Under the pieces are notes generated by a model. That model searched no databases, had not been told where the DNA came from, and saw only the letters and a list, made by a program, of their open reading frames with translations. Source: a virus. From it: 64,000 nt of DNA. Below are positions 905-63,624 of the stretch, in pieces. The position numbers were made by a program, and so were the translations under genes. The first letter of the stretch is position 1; every line of letters starts with the position of its first letter. The stretch lies in the IMG/VR virus record IMGVR_UViG_3300034152_000814, positions 1 through 64,000 of that record; one strand, written 5' to 3'.

Positions 905-960
905 GAAATCCCTTGCATTCCCCTCGGAGCATCGTATCCTGTAGTGAAAGGGGAATTCCG
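905..960 (+). promoter_or_regulatory. conserved promoter+5'UTR cassette, copy A (TTGCAT-16-TATCCT, leader gtagtgaaaggggaa)
   Basis: matches the repeated element found at 60283, 61997, 63001 and 63566; -35 at 913-918, -10 at 935-940, RBS aaagggga before ATG 961. Confidence 0.55.
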
Positions 961-1110
961 ATGAGAAACGCAATCGCGATCGTGCTGGTCGTCGCCGGCC
1001 TGCTCTGGCTCGGTTCCTTGCTCGGGTCCTGCGTCGAGCGCCTGTCCGAGCGCGCGAAGGACGCCGGCGGATTCGTCGGTTGCGCCTACAACCCGGAGAC
1101 CAACGAATGA
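961..1110 (+). CDS. small membrane protein (49 aa)
   Basis: hydrophobic stretch IAIVLVVAGLLWLGSLLG; directly downstream of cassette copy A. Confidence 0.45.
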   Translation: MRNAIAIVLVVAGLLWLGSLLGSCVERLSERAKDAGGFVGCAYNPETNE

Positions 1111-1235
1111 GACGATGGAGAGTGTTCTTCGGCGACGGGTCGTCCGTCGTCGTGGCCGCCGACGACGCCGACGAGGCTGTCAAGGTGGCGTTCGACCACT
1201 ACCGGCAGCGCGGCGTCCGAGCGGAGATGTGCTGA
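1107..1235 (+). CDS. hypothetical small protein (42 aa)
   Basis: ATGA overlap with upstream stop and TGATG overlap with the next gene; below the ORF-track size cut-off. Confidence 0.3.
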   Translation: MRRWRVFFGDGSSVVVAADDADEAVKVAFDHYRQRGVRAEMC

Positions 1236-1462
1236 TGAGTCGCAACCTATGCCGTCACAACTGCGCCTACTGCGAGTCGGACGTACGGCTCGACGAGGAG
1301 CCGCGCTTCGCGACCGCCGAGGATTGCGGCAGGTACTTCAGCGAGTACGCCACCCTGATCGTCGCGCGCGCGACGTGCCCGCTCTGCGAGGCGAAGGCGA
1401 GGGAGGCGGAGCGCTGGTACGAAGTAATCTGCGACGAATGCACAGGGAGGGTATGCAGATGA
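1235..1462 (+). CDS. Zn-ribbon protein (two CxxC pairs)
   Basis: CRHNCAYCE ... CPLCEAK ... CDECTGRVC. Confidence 0.45.
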   Translation: MSRNLCRHNCAYCESDVRLDEEPRFATAEDCGRYFSEYATLIVARATCPLCEAKAREAERWYEVICDECTGRVCR

Positions 1463-1806
1463 AGTGCGCTTGCTTACTCGCGCTGGTCCTGCTGACCGGC
1501 TGCTCGACGATCGACCTACCTGAAGAACCGCTGACCGACCGCCCTTCCGCGTCGGCGGCCCGCGCGGTGACGGAAGCGTGGGCCAAGAAGTACATGAAGG
1601 ACCCGACGTCGTTCCTGGTCCGGAACGTGACGGAGCCGAAGGTACGGCGCCGACCGGGCCCGCTCTTCGGGCTGGTCCGGGGGCGGATAGGCTGGAGCTG
1701 GACGGCGGAGCTCAACGGGAAGAACGGCTCCGGCGGGTACGCCGGCTGGACGACGTACCGGTTCTACCTGTTCGCGGACGGGAGCTGGTGGGGGACGGTA
1801 TGGTAG
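1453..1806 (+). CDS. lipoprotein
   Basis: signal peptide plus lipobox LLTGCS. Confidence 0.55.
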   Translation: MQMKCACLLALVLLTGCSTIDLPEEPLTDRPSASAARAVTEAWAKKYMKDPTSFLVRNVTEPKVRRRPGPLFGLVRGRIGWSWTAELNGKNGSGGYAGWTTYRFYLFADGSWWGTVW

Positions 1807-2060
1807 CGTACGGACTCATCCTCAGCGTCGCGGCTGCGGTCGCGTTCACCGCGGTGATGGTGGCGATCGCCAACACCGTCGGACGCGGTAGTATCGACGC
1901 TCCGCGCCGCGTCCCGCGTGGCGGTACGGAGGGGACTGTGAGCCCCAACGACGTACTGGAAATCGAGGTCCGGGAGGAGATCTCGGAGTTGATCGGGGAA
2001 ACGGAAGACGACGACGCGCGCGCGTTCCTGCGCCGCCTGCTGGAGCTGCTGGATGGTTGA
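1800..2060 (+). CDS. small membrane protein
   Basis: N-terminal TM helix ILSVAAAVAFTAVMVAIA; acidic C-terminus. Confidence 0.45.
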   Translation: MVAYGLILSVAAAVAFTAVMVAIANTVGRGSIDAPRRVPRGGTEGTVSPNDVLEIEVREEISELIGETEDDDARAFLRRLLELLDG

Positions 2061-2316
2061 CGCGAACGTGATAGGAACGGATCACGGGTTCCAGGCTTTC
2101 AAGCGGTTCGTGAACGACGACCGCCTCCGAACCTTGACGACCGAGGAGCAGTTCCAGGCCGGCGGGATTACCGCCGTAGCGTTCGTGGTCCACCTCGTGG
2201 AGCAGAGCGTCCACGAGTCGTGCTGGAAAGAGCACCTCGGCTCGTTGTTCGAGGCCATGCGCGTGGACGCGGAGAAGATCCTCCGCGACCGGCAACGGAG
2301 AAGGGAGACGGGATGA
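2053..2316 (+). CDS. hypothetical protein
   Basis: ORF in the co-directional operon; ATGG overlap. Confidence 0.4.
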   Translation: MVDANVIGTDHGFQAFKRFVNDDRLRTLTTEEQFQAGGITAVAFVVHLVEQSVHESCWKEHLGSLFEAMRVDAEKILRDRQRRRETG

Positions 2317-2876
2317 CGTTCGGACTCGCGATCGACATCGTGCTGCTGATCTGCCTGTTCCTCGTGACGTCCGCGTTGTGGAAGTTCATGGACCGGACGG
2401 ACAATAATTTTCGTCGCGTCAAGGACGGGCTCTCGAAGCAACTCAGCGTCCTCCGGCGTGAGCTCGACGAGACGGACCGACGACTGGACGTCGTCTCCGA
2501 CGAGGTGGAGCGATTCACCCTCCCGCCCGAGGGGGAGATCACCGTACCACCCGGAACCCTGCGCTCCAAGTTGCTGATCCTCGCGCCCGTGAGCCTGCTC
2601 GTCGGCTGCGGGACGATCTCCTGGACGAACGCGCCGGACCTCGACCTCGCGCTGACGCGCGTCGAGATCTGGCGCGACGACGTCCTGATCTACGGGATGA
2701 CGCTCAACGCCGGCGACGTGTCGATGGACCCCCAGAAGCGGGTCTGGGTATACATCCCGAAGGATTGGAAATTCGAGAAGGGCGTCGAGTACCGCCTCCG
2801 CGCCCGCCACGTGGACGCCGCCGGCAACGTGGGCGACTGGTCCGACTGGTACGAGTTCGAGGGAAACGATGAATGA
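2313..2876 (+). CDS. membrane-anchored protein with C-terminal beta-sandwich (FN3-like) domain
   Basis: RBS aagggagacgg; TM helix AIDIVLLICLFLVTSALW; C-terminal YRLRARHVDAAGNVGDWSDWYEFEG. Confidence 0.5.
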   Translation: MTFGLAIDIVLLICLFLVTSALWKFMDRTDNNFRRVKDGLSKQLSVLRRELDETDRRLDVVSDEVERFTLPPEGEITVPPGTLRSKLLILAPVSLLVGCGTISWTNAPDLDLALTRVEIWRDDVLIYGMTLNAGDVSMDPQKRVWVYIPKDWKFEKGVEYRLRARHVDAAGNVGDWSDWYEFEGNDE

Positions 2877-3075
2877 CAATGAGAAGGCCCGGTTCGAACG
2901 GTCGCTCGCGCGCGCCGTCAAGGATATCGGGCTCCACTACGTCCTCCGACTGACGCGCGTCGCGATCCACCAGCCCCGCCCCGGGTTGGTGCCACGACAA
3001 ATGAACATGCTCTTCGAGAGGGTCGACCCCCTCGTCCGGATCGCCGAGAACATAGCCGTGGAGGAAGACCTTTGA
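2869..3075 (+). CDS. hypothetical protein
   Basis: ATGA overlap coupling. Confidence 0.4.
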   Translation: MNDNEKARFERSLARAVKDIGLHYVLRLTRVAIHQPRPGLVPRQMNMLFERVDPLVRIAENIAVEEDL

Positions 3076-3344: not shown

Positions 3345-3381
3345 TGCCTAAGTACCAATACGTCGGCACCGACGAGGGACG

Positions 3382-4635
3382 GTGGAAATGAAGCGTCCGA
3401 AGGTCATAAGCCTTTTTACGGGCGCCGGGGGCTTGGATCTCGGCCTTGAAGCTGCCGGATTTGAGTTGGCTGTCGGGGTAGAATTTGACCCCGAAGCAGT
3501 CGCTACCCTCCGCGCAAATCGGAACTGGCCGATTATTGACCGCGACATACACGAGGTTCCGACCAAGGAGCTGCTCGAGGTCGCGGGGCTTCGCGAGGGC
3601 GAAGCCGATCTCCTCGCTGGTGGGCCGCCCTGTCAGCCCTTCAGTAAATCGGGCTATTGGGCCAGTGGCGACGCCGGCAGACTCGAGGACCCGAGAGCGA
3701 CAACTCTTGAGGCGTTCCTTCGAGTGCTGAGGGACACCAAGCCGAAGGTCTTCTTACTTGAGAATGTCTCTGGGCTTGCATACCGAAACAAGAATGAAGG
3801 CCTGGAGCTTCTCCGAACTACGATTGACGAAATCAACGAGGCCGCCGGCACCGCATACTCGTTCCAATCTTCGGTAATCAACACCGTAGAGTATGGTGTA
3901 CCGCAGGAGAGGGAGCGGTTCTTGGTAATAGGCCACAGAGACGGCGCCTGTTTTGAGTTTCCTAAACCAACTCACACGAAGCCCAAGAAGCAGCGAGGAA
4001 CTCGCCGGAGTTCCTCGGAAGACAAAGATCTCGAGCCGTTTCACACGGCTTGGGACGCGATTGGCGACCTTCAGGAGGACGGCAGCGCCGAGTTGAGAAT
4101 GACTGGCAAGTGGGCAGACCTTTTGCCCTCAATTCCCGAGGGCGAGAACTATCTCTACCACACTGACCGGGGCGCAGGCCTTCCGCTTTTTGGTTGGCGG
4201 AGAAGATATTGGAGTTTTCTTCTCAAGCTATCCAAGCGTCTCCCGTCTTGGACCATAACTGCTCAGCCAGGCTCAGCCATAGGGCCCTTTCATTGGAAGA
4301 ACCGACGTATCTCCATGAAGGAGCTATGCAGGCTTCAGACGTTCCCCGACGACTACGAGATCCTTGGTGGCCGCACCTCCTATCAAAAGCAACTTGGCAA
4401 CGCTGTCCCGGCTGCTTTAGCAGAGAAGCTTGGGCTGGAGATTCGTAAAATGCTTGGTCACGACGTGCGCCGCAGAAAGCTCAAGCTCCTGCCGGCTCGT
4501 CGAACGCCTGTGCCTCCGGCAGAACGCTCTCGAAAGGTTCCACAGAAGTACATGGAGCTTGTCGGCGAACACGAGGCACACCCAGGAACAGGTAAAGGAT
4601 ATGGGGCATTAGCCAGAACTCAAAACCAAAGCTGA
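3382..4635 (+). CDS. dcm: DNA cytosine-5 methyltransferase
   Basis: C5-MTase motifs I FTGAGGLDLG, IV PPCQPFS, ENV, QLGNAVP; lower GC than neighbouring genes. Confidence 0.9.
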   Translation: MEMKRPKVISLFTGAGGLDLGLEAAGFELAVGVEFDPEAVATLRANRNWPIIDRDIHEVPTKELLEVAGLREGEADLLAGGPPCQPFSKSGYWASGDAGRLEDPRATTLEAFLRVLRDTKPKVFLLENVSGLAYRNKNEGLELLRTTIDEINEAAGTAYSFQSSVINTVEYGVPQERERFLVIGHRDGACFEFPKPTHTKPKKQRGTRRSSSEDKDLEPFHTAWDAIGDLQEDGSAELRMTGKWADLLPSIPEGENYLYHTDRGAGLPLFGWRRRYWSFLLKLSKRLPSWTITAQPGSAIGPFHWKNRRISMKELCRLQTFPDDYEILGGRTSYQKQLGNAVPAALAEKLGLEIRKMLGHDVRRRKLKLLPARRTPVPPAERSRKVPQKYMELVGEHEAHPGTGKGYGALARTQNQS

Positions 4636-4716
4636 GACGGGTTCATGGCGTCAAGGAAGCGCACCAAGTCGTTCCCCAAGAAGAAGGACCGGAAACGGGC
4701 GCGCAAGCGCGAGCTC

Positions 4717-4750
4717 GTGCTTGACGCTACGTCAATCCGTGGTATACTTC
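4717..4750 (+). promoter_or_regulatory. sigma70-like promoter TTGACG-16-TATACT
   Basis: near-consensus hexamers upstream of gene 4835; same CTTGACG -35 flavour as the cassette family. Confidence 0.4.
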
Positions 4751-7566: not shown

Positions 7567-7811
7567 ACGCCACGCAACTACGGGAGATGCGGGAAACCCA
7601 CGAGTTCCTCTGGATCAGCGAGCTCGCCGAGATGCTCGAAGCCTCCCCGCACGTGGTCCGGCGGCTCGCCCACGCCGGCAGGCTGCCCGCGGTGAAGCTG
7701 CCGAACGGCACGATCCGGATCCACTACCGACGGGGGGAGGACCCGAGGGGGTTCGGCGCGGACGTCGAGCTGTGGAGCCGTCCGAAGAAAAGAGTTGACA
7801 AGGGCGACTGA
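7554..7811 (+). CDS. excisionase/MerR-like HTH DNA-binding protein
   Basis: ISELAEMLEASPHVVRRLAHAGRLPAVKLPNGTIRI helix-turn-helix. Confidence 0.6.
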   Translation: MRRLNATQLREMRETHEFLWISELAEMLEASPHVVRRLAHAGRLPAVKLPNGTIRIHYRRGEDPRGFGADVELWSRPKKRVDKGD

Positions 7812-11844: not shown

Positions 11845-13341
11845 GTGCGGCAGTTGGTGGAGTGGCGCAAGGTGGAGGGCGCCCTCAAGCCCTTCATGAA
11901 CGGCTACGAGGTGGCGTGGGCCCCCCAGCCCGGCTCCCAGGAGGCGTGGCTGGATTGCGGGATCTACGAGGGGCTCTACGAGGGGACCCGCGGGCCCGGG
12001 AAGACCGATTGCCTCCTCATGGATTTCGCGCAGCACGTCGGGAAATCAGTATGTCCGGGCGACCACAAGGGATACGGCGCCGAATGGCGCGGGATCCTCT
12101 TCCGGCAGACCTACCCCCAGCTCGCCGACCTCGTGGCGAAGACGAAGAAGTGGTTCCCGCGGGTCTTCCCCGCGGCGACGTTCAACGAATCGAAGATGAC
12201 GTGGGCCTGGCCGACGGGCGAGACGCTCAGGCTCTCCTACATGGCCCGGGAGGAGGATTACTGGAACTACCACGGGCACTCCTACCCCTGGATCGGGTGG
12301 GAGGAGCTCACGACCTGGCCGAGCGATCATTGCTACAAGATCATGATGTCGTGCTCCAGGTCGACGCAGCCCGGGATGCCCCGCAAGTACCGTGCCACGT
12401 CGAACCCCTACGGGCCGGGGCACAACTGGGTGAAGGCCCGGTGGCGCCTGCCGCTCGCCCCGGGACGGATCATCGGACCGGTGATCCGGGAGGGTGATCT
12501 GCCCCCGAGGGTAGCGATTCGGGGCCGTCTGACGGAGAATAGAATTCTGTTGGAAGCAGATCCGGAGTACATCGACCGGATCCGCGCCGCGGCGAGGAAT
12601 CCCTCGGAGCTGAAGGCGTGGCTGTACGGCTCCTGGGACATCGTGGCCGGCGGGATGTTCGACGACATCTGGCAACCGAGGTACCACGTCGTCGAGAACA
12701 TTCCCCTCGACGCGATACCCTCAACGTGGCGTTTGAACAGGAGTTACGACCACGGCCAATCGAAACCTTTCTCGGTTGGCTGGTGGGCGCAGTCGAACGG
12801 CGAGCCGATCGAGGTGAACGGCGCCGTCTTCGGGCATGTCCCGGGGGACCTGTTCCGGCTCACCGAGTGGTACGGCTGGAACGGCTCCCCGAATGAAGGT
12901 TTGCGCATGCTGTCGACCGAGATAGCCGACGAGATCCGGGAGCGGGAGAACCGGTGGGGACTCAACGGTCACGTCAAACCAGGTCCCGCGGACTCCTCGA
13001 TCTTCGACGACTTCGAGCCCGGTAAGAGCGTGGCGGGCGACATGGCGAGGCGGGGCGTACGGTGGCAGGCGGCGGACAAGCGGGCCGGGTCCCGCAAGCA
13101 GGGGTGGGAGCAGATCCGGAAGTACCTGAAGGGAGCGGTCCCAGGCGAGGAAGGCGTGCGAGAGTCGCCGGGCCTCTTCATCTGCCGGAACTGCGAGCAA
13201 TTCATCCGGACGTTCCCGGTTCTACCACGCGACGGGAAGGATCCCGACGACGTGGACACGGACGCGGAGGATCACATCGCGGACGAGGTGAGGTACCGGG
13301 TGCGCGAGAAGGTACGGACGGCGAGGAGCTACGATGCCTAA
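11845..13341 (+). CDS. terL: terminase large subunit
   Basis: Walker A GTRGPGKT; RATSNPYGPGHNW terminase signature; RBS gaaggagg. Confidence 0.9.
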   Translation: MRQLVEWRKVEGALKPFMNGYEVAWAPQPGSQEAWLDCGIYEGLYEGTRGPGKTDCLLMDFAQHVGKSVCPGDHKGYGAEWRGILFRQTYPQLADLVAKTKKWFPRVFPAATFNESKMTWAWPTGETLRLSYMAREEDYWNYHGHSYPWIGWEELTTWPSDHCYKIMMSCSRSTQPGMPRKYRATSNPYGPGHNWVKARWRLPLAPGRIIGPVIREGDLPPRVAIRGRLTENRILLEADPEYIDRIRAAARNPSELKAWLYGSWDIVAGGMFDDIWQPRYHVVENIPLDAIPSTWRLNRSYDHGQSKPFSVGWWAQSNGEPIEVNGAVFGHVPGDLFRLTEWYGWNGSPNEGLRMLSTEIADEIRERENRWGLNGHVKPGPADSSIFDDFEPGKSVAGDMARRGVRWQAADKRAGSRKQGWEQIRKYLKGAVPGEEGVRESPGLFICRNCEQFIRTFPVLPRDGKDPDDVDTDAEDHIADEVRYRVREKVRTARSYDA

Positions 13342-17187: not shown

Positions 17188-17982
17188 ATGAAGTTCAATT
17201 TCGCTCAGAACACGGAAGTCGACGCGCTGGACGTGGTGCCGGAGGAGTTCCGGCCGCTGTACGCCGAGAAGGAGGCTGGCGGCTACGCGCTCAAGACGGA
17301 GGACGAGACCGTCAAGGGCGCGGTGGCGGCGATCCTCGGGCTGAACAAGGCCCTCGTGGCGAGCAGGGCGGAGGCCAAGGAGGCCAAGTCCCGGACCGTA
17401 GACCTGAGCGCCCTGAGCGACTACGGCGAGAGCGTCGACGAGATCGCGGCCGGCGTCCAGACCAAGCTCGAGGAGCTGGAGACCCAGGTCGCTGGCGGCA
17501 AGAAGGCGAAGCTCGACCTCGACAAGGTGCGGGCGGACCTCGGCGCGGCCCACGCCAAGCAGATGGAAGCGGTGAACAAGAAGAACGAGGCGCTGACCTC
17601 TCAGCTCCATACCCTCTTGATCACCAACGATTTACGCGCCGCGATCGGCGATCGGGCGATCAACGCGGACCTCGTCCTGCCGTTCGCCGAGCGCCAGATG
17701 CGGGTCGTCGACGAGGACGGCACGCTGAAGGCGTACGTCGTCAACCCGGACGGCACGCAGCGCTTCTCGGGCGTGACGGCGCAGCCGATGACCGGCAAGG
17801 AGCTGATCGAGGAGATGGCGGTCTCCGAGGCGTACGCGCCCCTGTTCCGGAGCAACAAGCCGGATGGCGGCGGGACGCCCCCGGGGAGCCCCGGACGACG
17901 GTCCCAGAACCGCCCGACCGAGGAGCTCAGCGCGAACGAGAAGATCGCCCGCGGGCTCGCCGCGCGGGAGCGGACCAGATAA
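17188..17982 (+). CDS. capsid scaffolding protein
   Basis: Ala/Glu/Lys-rich coiled-coil; position immediately before the major capsid gene. Confidence 0.7.
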   Translation: MKFNFAQNTEVDALDVVPEEFRPLYAEKEAGGYALKTEDETVKGAVAAILGLNKALVASRAEAKEAKSRTVDLSALSDYGESVDEIAAGVQTKLEELETQVAGGKKAKLDLDKVRADLGAAHAKQMEAVNKKNEALTSQLHTLLITNDLRAAIGDRAINADLVLPFAERQMRVVDEDGTLKAYVVNPDGTQRFSGVTAQPMTGKELIEEMAVSEAYAPLFRSNKPDGGGTPPGSPGRRSQNRPTEELSANEKIARGLAARERTR

Positions 17983-18130: not shown

Positions 18131-19087
18131 ATGGCCAGTGTGACTCTCACGGAATCGGCGAAGCTCGCTCAGGACGACCTGGTGGCCGGTGTCATCGAGA
18201 ACATCGTCACCGTGAACCGCATGTTCGAGCTCCTGCCGTTCGACGGCGTCGAGGGCAACGCTCTCAAGTACAATCGAGAGAACGTCCTCGGCGGGGCCGG
18301 TGTGGCCGGCGTCGGCGACACCATTTCCAGCGACGCCTACGACCCGATCCTCGCCGCGAACAACGCCAAGGATCCGGCGACCTTCACCTCGGTGACGGCC
18401 AGCCTGACCACGATCCTCGGTGACGCCGAGGTCAACGGTCTGATCCAGGCGACCCGCAGCGGTGACGGGAACGACCAGAAGGCGGTCCAGATCGCCAGCA
18501 AGGCCAAGAAGTGCGGGCGGATCTACCAGGACATGCTGATCAACGGCACGGGCGCCGCCGATCAGTTCGACGGGCTGATCAACCTCTGCCCGGTGGGGCA
18601 GATGGTGGATACCGGTGCGACCGGTTCGGCCCTGTCCTTCGCGATCCTGGACGAGCTGCTCGACCTGGTCGTCGACAAGGACGGACAGGTGGACTACATC
18701 GCCATGCACGCGCGGACGATCCGCTCCTTCAAGGAGCTCCTGCGCGGACTCGGCGGTGCCGGCATCGGGGACGTCGTGGAGCTGCCCTCGGGCGCCCGCG
18801 TGCTCTCGTACTCCGGGGTTCCCATCCTCCGGAACGACTGGATTCCGGTCAACCAGACGAAGGGTGGGACGCCGAACTGCACCACGATCTTCGCGGGCAC
18901 GTTCGACGACGGTTCCCGGAGTCACGGCATCGCTGGCCTGACGGCCGAGCGGAAGGCCGGGATCAAGGTCGTGGAGGTCGGCGAGCACCAGGATCGCGAC
19001 GAGTCGATCACCCGCCTGACGTGGTACTGCGGCCTCGCGCTCTTCAGCGAGCTCGGGATCGCGTGCGCGGACGGCATCACGGACTGA
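18131..19087 (+). CDS. major capsid protein (HK97 fold)
   Basis: 318 aa; strong RBS gtaggaggtacg; followed by a strong terminator. Confidence 0.85.
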   Translation: MASVTLTESAKLAQDDLVAGVIENIVTVNRMFELLPFDGVEGNALKYNRENVLGGAGVAGVGDTISSDAYDPILAANNAKDPATFTSVTASLTTILGDAEVNGLIQATRSGDGNDQKAVQIASKAKKCGRIYQDMLINGTGAADQFDGLINLCPVGQMVDTGATGSALSFAILDELLDLVVDKDGQVDYIAMHARTIRSFKELLRGLGGAGIGDVVELPSGARVLSYSGVPILRNDWIPVNQTKGGTPNCTTIFAGTFDDGSRSHGIAGLTAERKAGIKVVEVGEHQDRDESITRLTWYCGLALFSELGIACADGITD

Positions 19088-21628: not shown

Positions 21629-22146
21629 GGTTGCAAGACTACCTACGACATCCGATCGCGCACGGTTCACTCGTGGGCGTGCTGCCGAACCAGCACCACG
21701 AACGCCCGGAGAACATCGAGGTCGCGAACACGACCCTCTCCGTCTTCCCGCTTCCCGGAGGACCCAGCGTTTGGGATATACCAGTGCCGTACGAGGCGCA
21801 GGTCGTGATCTTCTCGTTCCGCAGCAACCACACGTGTTCGGAAGGAGCCGGCAAGGCGGGCGTGACGGGCGTCGCGACGCGCAGCCAGTTCGATGCGTCA
21901 ACGGTTTCCACCGGTGGGCACGGCACCATTTCCACAAGTGCCTACAACGCGGTATACTCGAAGAGGGCCGCGGCGATGAACCTGTCGCACAAGGTCTTCT
22001 CGTCGGTTGGTTCGTACATAAGTTTAACGGAAATATATCTTTACGAAACGGCCCCTCTGACCCGCGTCCTCCGGACGGAGTGGACGAACTACGGGGCGGC
22101 GTTGTATACGCTGAATTGCTGGGGCGAGGTAGCGGTGCTGAAGTGA
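21625..22146 (+). CDS. structural-module protein, paralogue 3 of 3
   Basis: 173 aa; MRLQDYLRHPIAHGSLVGVLPNQHH. Confidence 0.55.
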   Translation: MRLQDYLRHPIAHGSLVGVLPNQHHERPENIEVANTTLSVFPLPGGPSVWDIPVPYEAQVVIFSFRSNHTCSEGAGKAGVTGVATRSQFDASTVSTGGHGTISTSAYNAVYSKRAAAMNLSHKVFSSVGSYISLTEIYLYETAPLTRVLRTEWTNYGAALYTLNCWGEVAVLK

Positions 22147-23390
22147 GCGACAAGCTACGGGTACTCGCGATTTGCCAGGAGGATCCGGAGTGGATCCTCG
22201 GGGGCATGGGGCGCCACGTCCGGGAGCTCTACCGCGCCATGGCGGAGCGCGGCGACGTCGAGATTGACCTCCTCGTCGGCGGGCCCGGGGAGGAGCCCAC
22301 GGAGTACCTCGGCTGTACGAAGCACGTCGCGGACAAGCTCGTCTGTTGGAAGCCACGCGTGCCGAACATGTCGAGTCTCCTGATCGCGGATCTCCAGCTC
22401 ACGAAGACGCTCGCCAAGCTGCTCGCCCAGGGGCAGACGTGGGACGTGATCCACGTCCACGAGTGGAACGCGCTCCAGGTGGCCAGGGTGGCGCGCGACG
22501 CCCTGGGGGTACCGGTGGTCGGTACCATGCACCTATGCATCACGGAGCTGATGCGGCAGGACGCGACGCCGGACGGACGGTACGGCGAGGCGGACATCTA
22601 CCTGATGCAGCAGGAGGGCCACCTCGTTGTGGATTCCGACGAGCTGATCCTCTGCTCCCAGTCGTACGTGGACCTGGTCCGCAACCTCTTCATGACGGAC
22701 CGCCCTATCAATTTGATCCACAACGGGATCCGTCCGTCGGAGTGGCGACGGGACGAGGCGGCGGGACGGCGGGCCCGGGAGGAGTTCGACCTACCGGACA
22801 GGCCGATCGCGCTCTTCGTCGGGCGGATCGCTGATATGAAAGGGATCCGGGAGCTCCTCGACGCCGTGCGCCGGTGGGACTCGGGCTACTGCGTCGTGGT
22901 GGCCGGCGAGATCAACGCGAACACGGACGACGAGAAGGAGCGGTGGGTAGTTACGCGCAAGTTACGTGATACCGTCAAGAAATATCCTGACCGCATGCGG
23001 TGGGTCGGTTTCCAGCACGACGACAAGCTCCGAGGACTGTACTCCGCGGCGGAGGTCGGGCTCGTCCCGTCGCTCCACGAGCCGTTCGGGATCGTGGCGC
23101 TGGAGCACATGGCGATGGGGGTTCCCCTCGTCACGACGGAGGTCGACGGGCTCGGGGAGATCGTCGTGGACGGGGAGGGGAACGAGTTCTCCCTGATCGT
23201 CGAGCCCGGCAAGAGCGGGCAGATTCACCGGGCGTTGAAGTTCCTGCGGAACCACCCGGAGGCGCGAGAGGAGCTGGCGGAGCTGGGGCGGCTCCGCGTC
23301 CTCGATTTCGATTGGCACGCCGCGGCGGCTGCCACGGTGGAGGTATACAGGAAGGTGGTGCGCGATGTCGCTGCAACTCGTCAATCCTAA
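22143..23390 (+). CDS. GT4-family (GT-B fold) glycosyltransferase
   Basis: EPFGIVALEHMAMGVPLVTTEVDGLGEIV (E-x7-E motif); GTGA coupling. Confidence 0.85.
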   Translation: MSDKLRVLAICQEDPEWILGGMGRHVRELYRAMAERGDVEIDLLVGGPGEEPTEYLGCTKHVADKLVCWKPRVPNMSSLLIADLQLTKTLAKLLAQGQTWDVIHVHEWNALQVARVARDALGVPVVGTMHLCITELMRQDATPDGRYGEADIYLMQQEGHLVVDSDELILCSQSYVDLVRNLFMTDRPINLIHNGIRPSEWRRDEAAGRRAREEFDLPDRPIALFVGRIADMKGIRELLDAVRRWDSGYCVVVAGEINANTDDEKERWVVTRKLRDTVKKYPDRMRWVGFQHDDKLRGLYSAAEVGLVPSLHEPFGIVALEHMAMGVPLVTTEVDGLGEIVVDGEGNEFSLIVEPGKSGQIHRALKFLRNHPEAREELAELGRLRVLDFDWHAAAAATVEVYRKVVRDVAATRQS

Positions 23391-57549: not shown

Positions 57550-58844
57550 TGGGTGATCGCTACATGATCAATCACTCGGTCGACGAGGGACAGGAGTCGG
57601 ACTGGATCACGTTCCAGACCATGCCCGGTCTCGACGAGCTGCCGTGGGCCGCGTCCGTCGCGCGCCGCAACAGCGGGGACAGGGCGAAGGTCGGTATCCG
57701 ATTCGAGGACGCGGACGGCGTCGTGATGCAGGAGGTCAACTACTACGGTCGCGGCGAGTTCTCGAGCGCGGTTCCGAACCTGACCAGCTTCCGCGCACCA
57801 TTCAAGGTGAAAACGAAAGCGCTCATCGGGGACCAGCTCACGACCACGCGCGCGGACGACCAGCTCGTGATCGCTGATCCGCCTGGAGTGATCCAGCCGC
57901 GCAGGTGGGTACACGTCGCGACGTGCACCCTTTCCAGCATCAAGAGCTGCTTCGCGACGACGGTCGGTGGTGCCCGCATCCTGATCGCGGGACACAGCAA
58001 GGACGTCCATTCGTTCAACGGGACCACCGTCGGGCTCGCGACCTCGCTTCCCGCTGCCGATCCGCGCGTGCGCGTCGGGACGTTCCTCAACCGCGGTGGG
58101 CTCGTCTACATGGTCGGCTGCTGCGGTGTGGGTGACCCTGACGCGCGGCTCTACTCGTGGAACGGACTCGCGCCCGAGGTCACCCCGGAAGGGAATCCGA
58201 TCATCGTGGATTCCCCGCAGTGCCGCATGATGGCCACCTTCAACAACGAGCAGCTCCTCGGGCCCGTCCTGAGCGCGGAGGGGCTGAAGCCGATCCTGCG
58301 GTACGACGGTGGTGGGACGTTCACGCAGCGCCTCCAGGCGTTCTGCGGCGGGACGGGGTCGTGGTTCTACGCGCCGGTGATCCACAACGGCGAGCTCTAC
58401 TGGTACGAACCGCACGCCGACCGGCTCCACCGGTGGGACGGGAGCGCGGCCGAGACGTCGTACGAGGATCCCGCGTGGGGAGAGATCAACGCCTTCTCCA
58501 TGGCGTCCTTCAACGGCAACCTCGACATCTTCGGTCCCAAGTGGAAGCGGTGGAACCCCGTCTCCAAGCAGTTCGACAAGGTTGTCCTCGCGTCGGGCTA
58601 CGACTTCGCCAGCCAGGCCGACCAGCAGCACGACTGCTACAGCCCCGTCTACTGGGGGAAGCTGTATACCGCGGACCAGCGCGGTCGGGTGTACCGCTAC
58701 CGGACGAACGGCCAGATCTCCTTCATGGGGCACCTCAAGGAAGCCCCGGTCGGGCTCGCGATGCTCGGCCCGTACCTCTACGCCGTGACGGAGAGCGGGA
58801 AGATCTTCCGCCAGCCGTTCAAGTTCCAGGACATCTTCGCCTGA
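57549..58844 (+). CDS. beta-propeller-like protein, paralogue 1
   Basis: 431 aa; paralogous to gene 58960. Confidence 0.55.
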   Translation: MGDRYMINHSVDEGQESDWITFQTMPGLDELPWAASVARRNSGDRAKVGIRFEDADGVVMQEVNYYGRGEFSSAVPNLTSFRAPFKVKTKALIGDQLTTTRADDQLVIADPPGVIQPRRWVHVATCTLSSIKSCFATTVGGARILIAGHSKDVHSFNGTTVGLATSLPAADPRVRVGTFLNRGGLVYMVGCCGVGDPDARLYSWNGLAPEVTPEGNPIIVDSPQCRMMATFNNEQLLGPVLSAEGLKPILRYDGGGTFTQRLQAFCGGTGSWFYAPVIHNGELYWYEPHADRLHRWDGSAAETSYEDPAWGEINAFSMASFNGNLDIFGPKWKRWNPVSKQFDKVVLASGYDFASQADQQHDCYSPVYWGKLYTADQRGRVYRYRTNGQISFMGHLKEAPVGLAMLGPYLYAVTESGKIFRQPFKFQDIFA

Positions 58845-58849
58845 TCAAC

Positions 58850-58880
58850 CAGGGGCCCGTCCTCCGGGGCGGGCCCCTCT
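58850..58880 (+). terminator. GC-rich hairpin terminator
   Basis: GGGGCCCG..CGGGCCCC followed by TCTCTACTT; a TTGACG-17-TAACAT promoter follows at 58886. Confidence 0.45.
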
Positions 58881-58959
58881 CTACTTGACGACGTGCCGCG
58901 CAACGCGTAACATCGTTGGTAGTATCTCAACACGTCGTCAAGCAAGAGGAGGTCCAACC

Positions 58960-60237
58960 ATGGCGAACACTTACGTCGTCAACCACCAGCTCACGGCCGG
59001 CGAGGACACGGACCGAGTCGAATTTCGAACCGCCGGTGGGCTCGGGACGCTGAACCTCGAGTTCCACGTCTCGCAGCTCGACGAAGACGCCATCGACGTA
59101 ACGATGCGCGTGATCAGCGGTAAGGGGACCGTGATCACGAGCCAGAACCGGACGACGCCCGGGACGGACGCCGTCCCGATCGCGGACGTCGAGAGCTACG
59201 TCCTGCCCCTGTCGATCGAGGTCTCCTGCGCGGCCGGCGCTGCCCACACCTACGTCCGGGCGCCGGACACCGAGGTTCCGATTGGACCGGCTGGAATCTC
59301 GCAGCCACCGCCGTGGGAGGAGGTCGCGGAGTTCACGCTCGCGGACATCCGCGGGATCGTCGCCGCAGGACGGTGGCTCGTCGCCCACGGGCGGCAGAAG
59401 GACATCCACGGCTACAAGGGCTTCGACGCCCCCGTATTGATCGCCCAGATCCCCGCGGCGGACGACCATAGTCGTGTGGGGAATCCCCTCGTCGTCGACG
59501 GCGTCCCGTACTTCATCGCCTGGGGAGGCACCAACGCCCCGACGCTCTACTCCTGGGACCAGGTCGTCGGCTCGGACCTCGACCTCGAGGGCATCCCGAG
59601 CGCCACGGCCTCGCAGCTCCACGTCCACGAGGTCTTCGGCGGGAAGCACCTGCTCGGGCCCGTCGAGCCCGGACCGGAGGCCCCGAAGAACGTCTGGGAG
59701 TACCAGGGGAGCGGCGTTTTCGCCTCGGAGTTCCAGTCGATCTGTAGCACCGCGGGCTCCTGGTGGTGGGGCGGGGCGGAGCTCGACGGGAAGCTCTACT
59801 TCCACGAGGCGAACTCCGACTGGCTGAACTGGTGGGACGGTTCGGTGGCCTCCCAGATCCGGGACGCGAACGGCACGACCGCCGAGAACAACATGAGGGG
59901 CTTCGACGGCGCGGTCCACGCCTTCTCCCGGGACGCCTGGCGCGTCTGGGACGGTGCGTCGCGGTTCATCGTCTACCTGAACACCGGCTCCGGATTCTTC
60001 TGGGACGGCGACCTCGCGAACGGCTCGCAGTCGATCGAGTACCTCGGCCGGTTGCTCGCCGCGGACCAGAGCGGGGACATCTACTCGCTCCGGGACGGCG
60101 TCCTCTCGCTGGAGGGCGACATCGGCGAGGCGCCCGTCGGGCTGGCCGCGGTCGGGCACCACGCCTACTGCGTCGCCCGCAGCGGCAAGATCTACCGTCG
60201 GCGCCTGCGGCTGACCGAGATCCTCCCGGCACTGTAA
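58960..60237 (+). CDS. beta-propeller-like protein, paralogue 2
   Basis: RBS agaggagg; shared N-terminal NH..T.GED and C-terminal EAPVGLA..Y.V..SGKI. Confidence 0.55.
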   Translation: MANTYVVNHQLTAGEDTDRVEFRTAGGLGTLNLEFHVSQLDEDAIDVTMRVISGKGTVITSQNRTTPGTDAVPIADVESYVLPLSIEVSCAAGAAHTYVRAPDTEVPIGPAGISQPPPWEEVAEFTLADIRGIVAAGRWLVAHGRQKDIHGYKGFDAPVLIAQIPAADDHSRVGNPLVVDGVPYFIAWGGTNAPTLYSWDQVVGSDLDLEGIPSATASQLHVHEVFGGKHLLGPVEPGPEAPKNVWEYQGSGVFASEFQSICSTAGSWWWGGAELDGKLYFHEANSDWLNWWDGSVASQIRDANGTTAENNMRGFDGAVHAFSRDAWRVWDGASRFIVYLNTGSGFFWDGDLANGSQSIEYLGRLLAADQSGDIYSLRDGVLSLEGDIGEAPVGLAAVGHHAYCVARSGKIYRRRLRLTEILPAL

Positions 60238-60246
60238 GATCACTCC

Positions 60247-60280
60247 GGGCCCCGTCTTCCAGCGGGGCCCTTCGTTTTTC
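60247..60280 (+). terminator. rho-independent terminator
   Basis: GGGCCCCG-8nt-CGGGGCCC followed by TTCGTTTTTC. Confidence 0.7.
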
Positions 60281-60388
60281 TAAGATTTTCCTTGACGATT
60301 CCCGGGGATGTTGTATGCTGTAGGTGAAAGGGGAAAACGAAATGCTCAGCAACGCGACCTACTACACCGGGAACAACGGCAAGGTGGA
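60281..60388 (+). repeat. 108-bp exact duplicate (other copy at 61997..62104) covering promoter, 5'UTR and first 15 codons
   Basis: identical strings taagattttccttgacgattcccggggatgttgtatgctgtaggtgaaaggggaaaacgaaatgctcagcaacgcgacctactacaccgggaacaacggcaaggtgga. Confidence 0.9.
60286..60341 (+). promoter_or_regulatory. promoter+5'UTR cassette, copy B (TTGACG-16-TATGCT)
   Basis: -35 at 60292-97, -10 at 60314-19, leader gtaggtgaaaggggaaaacgaa. Confidence 0.6.
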
Positions 60389-60590
60389 GCGGATCGTGAT
60401 CGGTCGGAGCGCGAGCCTCGACACGGCCCTCGAGGAAGCGCAGCGGATCATCCGGGAGGACGGCTTCCAGAATAGCGTCCGGGACTGGATCGAGGACGAG
60501 GACGGGAAGGCGGCAGCCTTCTCGAAGGAAGAGAGCGGGCGCGGCATCTACGCCTGCGCGACCCGATCGATCACGATCGTCCGGAAGTGA
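60342..60590 (+). CDS. small early protein (82 aa)
   Basis: MLSNATYYTGNNGKV N-terminus shared with gene 62058. Confidence 0.55.
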   Translation: MLSNATYYTGNNGKVERIVIGRSASLDTALEEAQRIIREDGFQNSVRDWIEDEDGKAAAFSKEESGRGIYACATRSITIVRK

Positions 60591-60657
60591 ATACTCGCGG
60601 GCAGGGGCCCCGGGCGGTCCGGGGTCCCTATAACTAACCCTCGAAAGGAGATACGCT

Positions 60658-61494
60658 ATGAAAGGTCTGCTTCTACACTGCGGCGCGTCCGCCACGACTC
60701 GGGAAGCGATCGTCGCCACGCCGACGCCCCCGCCCACGGACACGCACTTCCCGATCCCGCACGGCGAGCTCCTGCGGAGCGTCGAGGAGTACCTATCCGA
60801 GAGCGGGTACGAGGTCGTCGAGCAGGCGCACGGCCTCGGGAACTACGGCGCCCGGTACTTCGGGCTCCTGCGCGTCCGTCGCCCCCAGCGAGCCTGGGAT
60901 ACCCTCGACACGCCGGTCGGGACGATCCCGTTCGGGGTCGACACGCCGGACCTCGCGCGCGGCGAGGTGGTCGGGCTGCGGAACGCCCACGACAAGCGGT
61001 ACAGCGCGTCCGTCGCCCTGGGCGACTACGTGTTCGTCTGCGACAACCTGTCCTTCGCCGGCGAGGTCGTGATCGGCCGGAAGCACACGAGGTTCATCCG
61101 GCGCGACCTCGACGGGATCATCCGGCGCGCGGTCGGCGAGCTCGGCGAGTTCCGCCAGCGCCAGGAGACCCGCCGGGACGCCTACCGGCAGACGGAGCTC
61201 TCGACTCGGGACGCCTACGCCCTCACCGTCGACGCCCTGAAGGCCGGCGCGATCGGTCAGCAGCGATTCCGCCGGGTGATCCGCGAGTGGGACGAGCCCT
61301 CCCACGAGGAGTTCGCCCAGGAGCGGAACGTCTGGCGGCTCTACAACGCCGTCACGGAGGCATTCAAGCCCCGCGTGCTCGCCGACGGGTCCTTCGCCAG
61401 GGGAGCGGGTCTGAACGCCCTGGCGGACAACGTGAAGGCGTCCAGGGCCCTCCACGGCGTCCTGGACGGGCACTGCGGGATCGCACTCAACTGA
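60658..61494 (+). CDS. hypothetical protein, possibly DUF932-like phage/plasmid protein
   Basis: 278 aa; RBS gaaaggagatacgct. Confidence 0.55.
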   Translation: MKGLLLHCGASATTREAIVATPTPPPTDTHFPIPHGELLRSVEEYLSESGYEVVEQAHGLGNYGARYFGLLRVRRPQRAWDTLDTPVGTIPFGVDTPDLARGEVVGLRNAHDKRYSASVALGDYVFVCDNLSFAGEVVIGRKHTRFIRRDLDGIIRRAVGELGEFRQRQETRRDAYRQTELSTRDAYALTVDALKAGAIGQQRFRRVIREWDEPSHEEFAQERNVWRLYNAVTEAFKPRVLADGSFARGAGLNALADNVKASRALHGVLDGHCGIALN

Positions 61495-61515
61495 GAAAAT
61501 GTTCCTCTCAAGCAC

Positions 61516-61556
61516 CGCGCCCCGGGGGCTCTTCCCTGGGGCGCATTTATTTTCAA
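61516..61556 (+). terminator. rho-independent terminator
   Basis: GCGCCCCGGGG..CCCTGGGGCGC followed by ATTTATTTTC. Confidence 0.5.
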
Positions 61557-61557
61557 G

Positions 61558-61627
61558 ATTTTCCTTGACGGTCCCGCGATCCCATCGTATCCTTCTGTGG
61601 CTTCGAGAGACAAGGAAAGGGGGAGCC
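61558..61627 (+). promoter_or_regulatory. promoter+5'UTR cassette, copy C (TTGACG-17-TATCCT, variant leader)
   Basis: -35 at 61565-70, -10 at 61588-93, leader tctgtggcttcgagagacaaggaaaggggg. Confidence 0.55.
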
Positions 61628-61999
61628 ATGAGTATCAAGTACGTCACGGTCGTCGGGAAGTTCGACACGTTCGCGGAAGCGGTCAAGAGCGTCCAGGGGA
61701 TCAACCTGGATGCGGTCGAGGGTCCAGTGGTTTCCACGGTCGAGGAGGACCCTCAGAAGGCGGCGAACTGGGAGCTCGTCGTCTCCTGTCTATCCCCCAC
61801 CAAAGGGACTGTCCGCCAAGCGGCGATCGCCGGGGACGAGGGCGCAGCCACGATCTTCGAGGTCGCCTACCTGCTCTGCGACGGTTTCGGGCAGATTGAC
61901 GGGCGGTGGGCCCGGGAGCAGTGCTGGGACTGGTCGCACGTCCGGGACTCATCGGACGAAGCCCTGGCGCGCTGCGCGGACTACCTTCGCAGCGTCTAA
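61628..61999 (+). CDS. small early protein (123 aa)
   Basis: ATG right after the variant leader. Confidence 0.55.
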   Translation: MSIKYVTVVGKFDTFAEAVKSVQGINLDAVEGPVVSTVEEDPQKAANWELVVSCLSPTKGTVRQAAIAGDEGAATIFEVAYLLCDGFGQIDGRWAREQCWDWSHVRDSSDEALARCADYLRSV

Positions 62000-62000
62000 G

Positions 62001-62057
62001 ATTTTCCTTGACGATTCCCGGGGATGTTGTATGCTGTAGGTGAAAGGGGAAAACGAA
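62001..62057 (+). promoter_or_regulatory. promoter+5'UTR cassette, copy D (identical to copy B)
   Basis: -35 at 62008-13, -10 at 62030-35. Confidence 0.6.
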
Positions 62058-62411
62058 ATGCTCAGCAACGCGACCTACTACACCGGGAACAACGGCAAGG
62101 TGGACGGCTTCCGGAACAGCGTCCGGGACTGGATCGAGGACAGAGAAAACCCAAAAGGAGAAACAGAGATGACACTACTGCAGCAAGCAATCGACCGGAG
62201 CCGGACCCACACCGAGCGAGTCAGCGTGGAGTTCGACGGCGATAAATCAGACCTGATGGTGGCATTGGCCGGTCTGTACGATGGTGAGATTGATGACGCG
62301 ACAGAGAATGACGGCACGGTCGACGTGTGGGGGTGGACCGAGGAAATGGCCGAGGGGGAAATGGATTGGCGACTCTGCGTGACGCTGACCCGGCGCGTTC
62401 GCGAGCTGTGA
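62058..62411 (+). CDS. small early protein (117 aa), mosaic
   Basis: first 15 aa identical to gene 60342, then joins at the shared GF(Q/R)NSVRDWIED segment. Confidence 0.55.
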   Translation: MLSNATYYTGNNGKVDGFRNSVRDWIEDRENPKGETEMTLLQQAIDRSRTHTERVSVEFDGDKSDLMVALAGLYDGEIDDATENDGTVDVWGWTEEMAEGEMDWRLCVTLTRRVREL

Positions 62412-62740
62412 TTCGCTGCCCGAAATGCGGGCACGAGTGGAAGGACGAGGGGCGCGCCAAGGGTGGGCGCGCCTCTCGGCGCACGATCACGCCAGCACAG
62501 CAGGCACGGATGCAGGCCGCCAGGAAACGGCGCAAGGCCATAGAAAACTTATTTCCAGGATTTTCCTTGACGGTTCCGCGATCCCATCGTATCCTTCTCT
62601 GGCTTCGAGAGACACGGAAGGGAGGGAGCCATGAGCAAGTGCGAATGCGGACGCCGGAAGAGTCAGTACGCGGGACGCTGCCGGAAGTGCACGCGGGAGC
62701 GGGACGAGGCCCGCGCAAACGAGAACCGGGCGATCGTTGA
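62408..62740 (+). CDS. Zn-ribbon protein; ORF reads through cassette copy E
   Basis: CPKCGHEW; GTGA coupling; no in-frame stop before 62740, so the real C-terminus is uncertain. Confidence 0.3.
   Translation: MIRCPKCGHEWKDEGRAKGGRASRRTITPAQQARMQAARKRRKAIENLFPGFSLTVPRSHRILLWLRETRKGGSHEQVRMRTPEESVRGTLPEVHAGAGRGPRKREPGDR
62558..62630 (+). promoter_or_regulatory. promoter+5'UTR cassette, copy E (TTGACG-17-TATCCT, variant leader)
   Basis: -35 at 62567-72, -10 at 62590-95. Confidence 0.55.
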
Positions 62741-62885
62741 GACCGGTCACTGCCCGGACTGCGGGGCCCCGCTGCGCCGGAACCTGGCCCTGGCCGGCTG
62801 GTGGCAGTGCTCGCAGTACGGCGCCGAGGGGTTCCGCGCCGACGACTCGAAGCCCTCCTGTAACTTCCAATGCTCCACGGAGTAA
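62631..62885 (+). CDS. Zn-ribbon protein (84 aa)
   Basis: CECGRR..CRKC ... CPDCG ... CNFQC. Confidence 0.5.
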   Translation: MSKCECGRRKSQYAGRCRKCTRERDEARANENRAIVETGHCPDCGAPLRRNLALAGWWQCSQYGAEGFRADDSKPSCNFQCSTE

Positions 62886-63001
62886 CGAATGAACATATTC
62901 GCCACGGACCCAGACCCGGTCGCTTCGGCCCGCGCGCTGGACGCGGTGCACGCCGCCAGCCTGGATAAGCGGCGAGGACACAGCAACTTAGAAAACCACC
63001 A

Positions 63002-63059
63002 AGAATCTCCTTGAAAATCCTCTGGAGCATCGTATCATGTAGGTGAAAGGGGAAACGGA
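63002..63059 (+). promoter_or_regulatory. promoter+5'UTR cassette, copy F (TTGAAA-16-TATCAT)
   Basis: -35 at 63011-16, -10 at 63033-38, leader gtaggtgaaaggggaaacggaa. Confidence 0.55.
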
Positions 63060-63362
63060 ATGAGCAAGACGATCGAGGCGGGAAGCGGGCGGGTCGAGGC
63101 GAGCGCGGCGGTGGGTTGCATCCTGGAGCCGGACGGGCGCATGGGCGAGAATCTCCTCCCCTGCGAGGACTACTCGGACGCGAGCTTCCGCTTCCCCGTC
63201 CTGGGACTCGAGATCGCCTGCAACGTCCACGTCACCGGCCGGAAGCTCCAGTACGACGGCGGCAACACGAAGGTCCGCGTGCGAATCGAGTGGGTCGGCG
63301 ACGGCGAGCCCTCCACGTTCTGCGGCGGGTGGCTCTGGCGGCCGGTCCTGAAGTTCGCGTGA
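63060..63362 (+). CDS. small early protein (100 aa)
   Basis: ATG directly after the leader. Confidence 0.5.
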   Translation: MSKTIEAGSGRVEASAAVGCILEPDGRMGENLLPCEDYSDASFRFPVLGLEIACNVHVTGRKLQYDGGNTKVRVRIEWVGDGEPSTFCGGWLWRPVLKFA

Positions 63363-63373
63363 GAGGGGATCCC

Positions 63374-63556
63374 ATGAAGTACGATTGCACCTACTACTGG
63401 GTCGGCGGGACGGAGCGCGGCGAGTGGCGCCGCGCAGATCCGGGACTCCGCGCCGAAATCCGTCGCCAGGGCTACGTCGCCCATGACGGACGCACCGACG
63501 TCGGGCCCCCGGAGGGGGCGCCCTCTGCGGAAGAGCTCCGGAACATCCTTGCCTGA
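63374..63556 (+). CDS. small protein (60 aa)
   Basis: RBS gagagggg. Confidence 0.4.
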   Translation: MKYDCTYYWVGGTERGEWRRADPGLRAEIRRQGYVAHDGRTDVGPPEGAPSAEELRNILA

Positions 63557-63565
63557 CGTATTCCC

Positions 63566-63624
63566 AAGATTTTCCTTGAAAATCCCCAGGAGCATCGTAT
63601 CATGTAAGTGAAAGGGGAAACGAA
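63566..63624 (+). promoter_or_regulatory. promoter+5'UTR cassette, copy G (TTGAAA-16-TATCAT)
   Basis: -35 at 63576-81, -10 at 63598-603, leader gtaagtgaaaggggaaacgaa. Confidence 0.55.

Follow-up and report, generated by a model that had tools for sequence, protein, structure and literature searches.

Seven repeated promoter-leader cassettes in the accessory-gene region of an uncultured siphovirus-like phage and their probable role as recombination patches

Why does a phage genome carry the same short sequence in front of one small gene after another? The question is raised by IMG/VR virus record IMGVR_UViG_3300034152_000814, of which positions 1 to 64,000 were analysed (64,000 nt, here called the window). 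A preliminary description of this DNA reported seven copies of a promoter joined to a 5′ untranslated region (5′UTR), one near position 905 and six in the last 4 kb. All seven were recovered by alignment and profile search, every one of them on the + strand. They are probably members of a single family of expression cassettes, each self-contained, among the accessory genes of a siphovirus-like phage of ~64.5 kb, and their promoters, of the host type, would double as recombination patches.

The cassettes are 63-79 nt long and could be aligned with one another. Each contains, in order, an A/T-rich tract, a -35 hexamer, a spacer, a TATNNT -10 hexamer, a short purine-rich leader, a Shine-Dalgarno sequence, and an ATG. 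The A/T-rich tract (AAGAWTTYCC) occupies the position of an UP element, within a genome of 65% GC. The -35 hexamer is TTGACG in four copies, TTGAAA in two, and TTGCAT in the copy near 905; the -10 hexamer is TATGCT, TATCCT, or TATCAT. There are two types of downstream segment, or leader, termed A and B, both ending in a purine-rich Shine-Dalgarno sequence placed 5-8 nt before the ATG. The spacer is 16 nt in the type A copies, also in the copy near 905 when counted by hand, and 17 nt in type B. The -35 sits ~45-60 nt upstream of the ATG and the cassettes are co-oriented with their genes, every copy standing in fixed register to the start codon of an intact open reading frame (ORF) with high GC content at third codon positions (GC3). 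Gaps between copies are irregular (443-1272 bp) and hold genes.

A profile search (nhmmer) found exactly seven copies in the window, the next match having E = 2.3, and none on the minus strand. The sequence TTCCTTGANNNTNCC has exact matches at five cassettes only, and the 12-mer GTGAAAGGGGAA has exactly five exact occurrences, all in type A leaders, against a chance expectation of ~0.008 in 64 kb. When positions 58000-64000 were scanned for the sigma-70 consensus, seven sites were found, compared with 0.6 +/- 0.9 in shuffled sequences. Six of the seven sites are cassettes (60292, 61565, 62008, 62567, 63011, and 63576), matching the consensus at 9-10 of 12 positions with 16- or 17-nt spacers. 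As judged from sequence, the geometry of these six copies and their enrichment over chance are those of sigma-70-type promoters. The copy near 905 is divergent, reading GAAATCCCTTGCAT, and was missed by the consensus scan; on direct reading it matches the consensus at 7 of 12 positions (TTGCAT / TATCCT). The layout that had been described for all copies, of a -35, 16 or 17 nt, and a -10, is thus borne out for six of them, whereas the copy near 905 has departed from it, with a -35 that matches at only three of six positions.

The cassettes are listed here with the terminators and genes around them, in the order of the array, from 60247 to the end of the window and then from its first position. 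Correspondences are to L230, the closest relative found, a 67.9 kb Logan contig with 63% primase identity.

60247-60279, + strand: intrinsic terminator T1, a 9-bp GC stem (60247-60270) and the T-tract TTCGTTTTTC; -21 kcal/mol, z = -4.2
60280-60344, + strand: cassette 1, type A, AAGATTTTCC-TTGACG-16-TATGCT-GTAGGTGAAAGGGGAAAACGAA-ATG
60342-60590, + strand: orf82, a small ORFan after cassette 1; GC3 0.92
60658-61494, + strand: DUF932-family gene (PF06067, 2.5e-7), placed second in unit 1 and preceded by its own Shine-Dalgarno sequence
61517-61553, + strand: intrinsic terminator T2, a hairpin (61517-61544) and T-tract; -26.8 kcal/mol, z = -4.7
61553-61630, + strand: cassette 2, type B, AAGATTTTCC-TTGACG-17-TATCCT-TCTGTGGCTTCGAGAGACAAGGAAAGGGGGAGCC-ATG
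61628-61999, + strand: orf123, with an L230 ortholog (51% amino acid identity)
61995-62060, + strand: cassette 3, type A, within 61995-62104, a perfect 110-nt duplicate of 60279-60388
62058-62168, + strand: remnant orf82 copy that has lost 72 nt internally, in frame, and continues into the next gene
62169-62411, + strand: orf80, an ORFan with its own Shine-Dalgarno sequence; GC3 0.73, below its neighbours
62408-62556, + strand: truncated Zn-ribbon ORF without a stop before cassette 4, its frame continuing through the cassette
62554-62633, + strand: cassette 4, type B, 91% identical to cassette 2
62631-62885, + strand: Cys-rich (Zn-ribbon-like) ORFan of 84 amino acids after cassette 4
62889-63014, + strand: gene fragment of 41 amino acids with a phrog_624 match (E = 1.6e-4), ending inside cassette 5; GC3 0.69
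62999-63062, + strand: cassette 5, type A′, TTGAAA-16-TATCAT, 10 of 12 to consensus
63060-63556, + strand: orf100 (63060-63362) and orf60 (63374-63556), ORFans after cassette 5
63564-63627, + strand: cassette 6, type A′, 91% identical to cassette 5
63625-63909, + strand: Cys-rich (Zn-ribbon-like) ORFan of 94 amino acids after cassette 6
1-637, + strand: AT-rich island with an MT-A70 methylase gene (44-586) and the first 18 codons of an HTH_17 gene
732-902, + strand: gene fragment of 56 amino acids with a phrog_5845 match (E = 2.2e-9), directly upstream of cassette 7
901-963, + strand: cassette 7, divergent type A, TTGCAT-16-TATCCT-GTAGTGAAAGGGGAATTCCG-ATG, the positional counterpart of the L230 cassette at 18473
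961-1806, + strand: small genes after cassette 7, syntenic with L230 18529-19685

Terminator hairpins directly precede two of the seven copies and are lacking at the other five. T1 ends the block of replication and unknown genes, closing off those after the primase, and lies directly upstream of cassette 1; T2, with a hairpin of 12 pairs by scan and 11 by minimum free energy fold, lies directly upstream of cassette 2. The genes after cassette 7 encode a 49-amino-acid membrane peptide, a 42-amino-acid ORF, a Zn-finger ORF (1235-1462), and a lipoprotein-like ORF that extends to 1806. Searches of Pfam, PHROGs, and PDB with the cassette-driven proteins returned nothing significant or informative; the exceptions in the array are the DUF932 gene, placed in the same predicted transcript as orf82, and sub-threshold Zn-ribbon matches. 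The early or anti-host locus suggested in the preliminary description is thus a putative one, and a role of the small proteins against restriction-modification or CRISPR systems, or in Abi, a mere possibility. The portable module that had been proposed, a promoter and 5′UTR in front of small genes, agrees with this anatomy, the small genes being ORFans. That three of them encode Zn-ribbon proteins holds only in part, as the evidence consists of CxxC pairs and Pfam matches below threshold, and one of the Cys-rich ORFs (from 62408) is truncated.

Several features of the array are footprints of recombination. The region 61995-62104 is 100% identical to 60279-60388 over 110 nt, including the first 47 nt of the downstream ORF, so that the third copy, counted previously as a separate unit, is part of a larger duplicate. 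After its in-frame deletion of 72 nt, the second orf82 copy diverges into another gene, which has its own Shine-Dalgarno sequence and a lower GC3. The orf123 gene is shorter than its L230 ortholog by the last ~5 codons, its stop being a TAA in the left edge of the duplicated cassette 3. In total, four clipped or fragmentary genes are found at the left edges of cassettes. In the 41-amino-acid ORF at cassette 5, residues 1-22 match positions 1-22 of the 309-position phrog_624, and in the 56-amino-acid ORF at cassette 7, residues 1-30 match positions 16-45 of the 170-position phrog_5845. Taken from the sequence, these footprints are compatible with duplication, gene conversion, and gene replacement in which the cassettes supply the homology, but are no proof of a dedicated mechanism.

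On this interpretation, each cassette would be a bacterial sigma-70-type promoter fused to an unstructured, purine-rich 5′UTR of ~15-28 nt, whose only evident function is to supply a strong Shine-Dalgarno sequence. Host RNA polymerase, perhaps with its sigma-70 alone, would start at each cassette and transcribe between one and four small accessory genes, presumably at an early stage of infection, and the strong terminators before two cassettes would make insulated transcription units. Because the copies are 60-100% identical over their 63-79 nt, they could also serve as homology patches, at which phage recombination would duplicate, delete, and swap small genes. Such recombination would keep the copies within a genome alike and leave clipped genes at their edges, as has been proposed for the promoter-early stem-loops (PeSLs) of T4-like phages.

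Further support comes from L230; no relative above 63% primase identity was found in any collection searched. Five copies of the cassette family follow the L230 primase gene (12693, 14295, 17297, 17961, and 18473), the first of them ~300 nt after it. In the window the array begins ~3 kb after the primase gene, behind two intervening genes and right after T1. The L230 copy at 17961 has the type A leader GTAGGTGAAAGGGGAACGAAATG and the copy at 12693 the type B leader TCTGTGGCTCGAGAGGAAAGG, so both types are carried by the relative, mostly before non-homologous genes. Only two of the ~11 array genes are common to both genomes, the DUF932 gene (52% amino acid identity) and orf123, and the cassette type ahead of orthologous genes differs between them. 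The copy at 18473, separated from that at 17961 by only 512 bp, is followed by a small membrane peptide, a Zn-finger ORF, and a lipoprotein-like gene, the counterparts of genes after cassette 7. Copies within the window are identical to one another at 100%, 91%, 91%, and 74-78%, the best L230 counterparts at 75-76%, and orthologous genes of the two genomes have 65-71% nucleotide identity. The exchange of small genes by recombination at the cassettes, as put forward in the preliminary description, is therefore supported by the duplicate, the deleted gene copy, the clipped genes, and a within-genome identity that exceeds that between genomes; recombination may be a continuing mechanism.

There are also points that weigh against the cassettes being autonomous host-type promoters and recombination patches. 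The -35 of cassette 7 is weak, and an adjacent stem-loop is found at only two of the seven copies. No such array is present in the relatives L316 (58% primase identity), L317 (57%), and Epa5 (L311). Between genomes, the cassette identity is modestly above that of coding DNA, and the distance of the sole relative sharing the cassettes prevents any indel breakpoint from being placed in a cassette to the exact nucleotide. In addition, the promoter repeats of Pseudomonas phage YuA are inactive without phage infection, although they match the sigma-70 consensus at 9 of 12 positions (PMC10914365). A consensus match such as that of the window copies is therefore no proof of activity with the host alone.

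The cassette sequence itself appears to be private to the lineage of the window and L230. When nhmmer was run over 83 sequences (the window and the loci of 82 relatives), matches were found in the window and L230 only. L102 (49% primase identity) is without the cassette, and blastn of the array against GenBank phages gave no match. Exact-pattern scans for the core in viral, metagenome, and genome collections returned ~230 loci, which were rejected as generic strong sigma-70 promoters of unrelated organisms; none is related to the window by blastn. Another, highly conserved promoter-like sequence, GATTTTCCTTGACTTTCTACAGGTTAGCAGTATGATTCCCCACAAT, is common to unrelated contigs from sediments and metagenome-assembled genomes (L107, L115, L123, L129, L131, L134, L135, L139, L145, L161, L169 with two copies, L179, L187-L189, and L216), and from its sequence it may be the multi-copy promoter of a different mobile element or phage group. 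Homologues of orf123 were found only in L230 and in the unrelated AT-rich phages L312-L315, which have promoter repeats of their own. In L312, a phage contig of 37% GC, a repeated promoter cassette, TTGACATTCTTTTCGTTTTTGTGATATCTT, is located at 3424, 9930, 11189, and 15361, one copy being directly before the distant orf123 homologue.

Repeated promoter cassettes have already been described in other phages, and the novelty claimed for those of the window was overstated. The PeSLs of T4-like myoviruses are conserved composite promoter/terminator cassettes in hyperplastic regions, where they bring about modular shuffling and give rise to mini-circles (Arbiol et al. 2010, PMC2839356; Comeau et al. 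2014, PMC4122927). Like them, the window cassettes are a multi-copy conserved intergenic module of ~60-100 bp with a near-consensus sigma-70 promoter, an A/T tract, a Shine-Dalgarno sequence, and an ATG. The terminator stem-loop that belongs to the PeSL element, and would insulate a unit, adjoins two of the seven window copies. Both kinds of cassette are concentrated in a plastic region full of small ORFans. PeSLs are associated with insertions, deletions, and replacements, and are proposed to provide the homology for modular shuffling; for the window cassettes the support is indirect, from the duplication, the deletion, and the clipped genes at cassette edges. They differ in that the window phage is siphovirus-like, ~64.5 kb, and 65% GC, not a T4-like myovirus, and in that its cassettes have no sequence similarity to PeSLs and mostly lack the stem-loop. 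The experimental core of the PeSL model, moreover, is the mini-circles and the breakpoints between near-identical phages, whereas the window cassettes are known from sequence alone. The relative L271 (51% primase identity) has five nearly identical cassettes of ~100 nt after its primase gene (12889, 16887, 19156, 20320, and 21504), each with a promoter-like TTTACC-N17-CATAGT followed by the conserved hairpin CCCCGTTCCCGATGACCGGGG; these are structurally closer to PeSLs than the window cassettes are.

Two further systems show part of the same organization. The host-takeover module of Bacillus phage SPO1 has many strong early sigma-A promoters and strong ribosome-binding sites before small genes, and so resembles the window in its dense host-type early promoters, strong Shine-Dalgarno sequences, and short accessory operons at one genome end. 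The SPO1 promoters are alike mainly in their hexamers, rather than forming 90-100% identical cassettes, and the phage and its host are unrelated to those of the window; they are not known to have been credited with a role in gene shuffling. Likewise, the start-associated sequences of Cluster K mycobacteriophages are short and conserved, and 10-20 copies of them stand directly before the start codons of certain genes, where they overlap the ribosome-binding site. These are 13-bp translation-initiation motifs without a promoter, whereas the window repeat is a complete promoter with a leader.

The YuA repeats are closer in phylogenetic terms. Their annotation in the YuA genome (NC_010116) reads 'putative sigma70 promoter requiring phage-encoded cofactor', and the motif is common to nine transcription starts that have been mapped (Putzeys et al. 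2024, PMC10914365). YuA belongs to the same broad phage group as the window phage, whose primase is ~50% identical to those of cultured Mesyanzhinovviridae such as Epa5, and has the same gene order and single coding strand. Its repeats are likewise multi-copy promoters of -35/17/-10 geometry with conserved spacer and flanks, and one copy is found ~265 nt after the primase gene. In contrast, the YuA copies are dispersed over the genome while those of the window are clustered in 4 kb, and the YuA -35 lacks the TTG and the YuA promoters were inactive without the phage, whereas the window copies look like host promoters that act autonomously and include a conserved leader in which there is a Shine-Dalgarno sequence. 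The annotated repeat, CTTTACTTCTTCGGA-N6-CACTATACTT, is located in YuA (L318) at 7722, 10500, 22639, and 29058, and recurs at equivalent positions in the metagenomic relative L300 (12608, 18361, and 18791).

These similarities raise the main alternative, that the cassettes are phage-controlled promoters and the whole array is turned on or off together, say in a middle class or through early shut-off, a scheme suggested for the YuA repeats. The spacer (GGAGCATCG or CCCATCG), the discriminator (GTAGGT or TCTGTGG), and the upstream AAGAWTTYCC would then bind a phage activator, repressor, or cofactor that modifies RNA polymerase. The conservation does reach beyond the hexamers, both within and between genomes, each lineage of relatives has a private cassette sequence, and relatives encode, just upstream of the primase, an XRE/HTH protein annotated as a putative repressor. 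The YuA precedent also favours control by the phage, since the motif shared by its nine mapped starts was inactive in a promoter trap. However, recent duplication or gene conversion explains the additional conservation equally well, as identity within the genome exceeds that between genomes. Unlike the YuA TTTACT, the window -35 has an intact TTG, with 10 of 12 consensus positions in two copies, and the YuA motif is absent, having no match in the window at up to three mismatches. By eye, no convincing operator-like dyad is common to all copies, only inconsistently placed TCC(CC)/GG(GG)A pairs of 3-6 bp, and because types A and B differ in spacer and discriminator, the site of a single regulator would be very short. 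Phage control is on balance doubtful, though the most serious of the alternatives, and it is compatible with the model of host-type promoters that double as recombination patches.

A second alternative is that the repeats arose merely because segments were recently duplicated in a non-essential region undergoing decay, and that they have no function beyond that of one ancestral promoter. The perfect 110-nt duplicate and the remnant gene copy would be expected in such a region, as would the several gene fragments and the segments of lower GC3. Both cassette types and their position are nonetheless conserved in L230, at 63% primase identity and with neighbouring genes at 65-66% nucleotide identity. 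At every copy the -35, -10, Shine-Dalgarno sequence, and ATG are in register before an intact ORF of high GC3, and analogous arrays are found in other lineages. A mere by-product is therefore unlikely.

The preliminary description also suggested that the leader may be a regulatory RNA element, and the identity of GTGAAAGGGGAA in five copies, and its presence in L230, could be taken to indicate a structured cis-regulatory RNA (a riboswitch, a thermosensor, or an element binding a small RNA or protein) that controls translation of the small genes. Assuming a start site ~7 nt after the -10, the predicted transcribed leader is just ~15-17 nt in type A and ~28 nt in type B, and because of this start the GTAGGT / TCTGTG part is probably untranscribed discriminator DNA. 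Together with the first 30 coding nucleotides, the leaders show no more folding than shuffled sequences do (z = -1.3 to +1.5, positive in five of six), the cassettes taken whole are likewise unfolded (z = -0.2 to +1.5), and Rfam has no match at E <= 1 in 59500-64000. As there is neither a stable fold nor an Rfam match, the conserved leader is best read as a promoter discriminator and an accessible Shine-Dalgarno region, which account for the conserved part. The proposal of a structured RNA is largely refuted, and very improbable. Least credible of all is a terminator, an attachment or packaging repeat, or a replication-origin iteron: two copies adjoin hairpins and a weak 6-pair hairpin in the consensus scan overlaps the type A -35, but the cassettes themselves are unfolded and have no T-tract, the true terminators are separate elements upstream of two of the seven copies, and the irregularly spaced copies have genes between them and are locked to start codons.

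The wider context of the array is that of a siphovirus. All credible genes of the window are on the + strand, and these encode a portal (DUF4055), MuF, capsid, a GT4-family glycosyltransferase, a tail tube, a tape measure, and a tail protein, followed downstream of the tail genes by SNF2 and SF1 helicases, a Pam3-gp34-like protein, PolA, and a DUF5906/RepB primase. The tail tube and tape measure are of the siphovirus type and the primase is closest to those of Mesyanzhinovviridae. An identical primase is encoded on a JGI contig of 64,545 bp, so that the window is almost the whole contig. The nearest cultured phages, at ~50% primase identity, are Pseudomonas phages Epa5 and Epa43 (Mesyanzhinovviridae), PaMx11, and Ab18-20, together with Bordetella and Stenotrophomonas phages, which suggests a proteobacterial host. 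The glycosyltransferase gene (21771-23390, 539 amino acids) is embedded amid those for head and tail. Promoter-like sites of a second class, on the + strand and without the cassette flanks, were found at 4721, 8492, 40100, 42212, 54846, and 57433; all have a TGn extended -10, for example TTGACG-N14-TGG-TATACT, and the three checked against ORF coordinates (4721, 8492, and 40100) fall between genes or immediately ahead of the following one.

Since L230 synteny joins both ends of the window, the cassettes most likely form, on this sequence evidence, a single array from the primase module to the terminase, running 60280...63627...(contig ends)...901. Mesyanzhinovviridae are reported to be circularly permuted (PMC11946847), and if the contig is too, the AT-rich island at 1-637 lies inside the array. 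The island has a GC content of 0.42 and a GC3 of 0.36, compared with 65% GC for the genome, and carries a complete MT-A70 adenine methyltransferase gene; the start of the HTH_17-type gene is joined abruptly to GC-rich sequence at ~637. It is either recently captured foreign DNA within the array or an assembly chimera at the contig end. In L230, the MT-A70 gene is GC-rich and located elsewhere in the genome, adjoining a helicase. A second DNA methyltransferase near the array (3382-4635) was assigned to the cytosine-C5 type by sequence motifs only, and it is plausible that both methyltransferases (3382-4635 and 44-586) have anti-restriction functions.

Other relatives also have multi-copy promoter cassettes of their own after the primase, some with a leader: L249, L271, L300 (of the YuA type), L308, and L234. 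The self-blast repeat screen of the relatives was insensitive, missing the window itself, and serves here for examples only. Tentatively, and with rather less confidence than the interpretation of the window array itself, cassettes of promoter and leader may be a device found throughout the Mesyanzhinovviridae-like siphoviruses, with every lineage (window/L230, YuA/L300, L249, L271, L308, and L234) having a private, homogenised sequence that would serve both as a co-regulated promoter set and as PeSL-like linkers for gene shuffling. The cassettes would possibly be read by a lineage-specific phage factor, and the AT-rich MT-A70 island would be one captured foreign gene. If this is true, cassette-mediated shuffling extends from T4-like myoviruses to an unrelated and widespread phage group.

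The array is an extension of known ideas rather than a new principle, and a tidy, ordinary case with recombination scars. If active, the cassettes mark the start of every accessory transcription unit of an uncultured phage, and they would be ready-made strong promoter and ribosome-binding-site parts for a high-GC, probably proteobacterial, host. They provide an example outside the T4-like phages of repeated regulatory cassettes that coincide with the duplication, truncation, and replacement of small ORFan genes, supporting the view that such cassettes are general hot spots for the acquisition of accessory, possibly anti-defence, genes.

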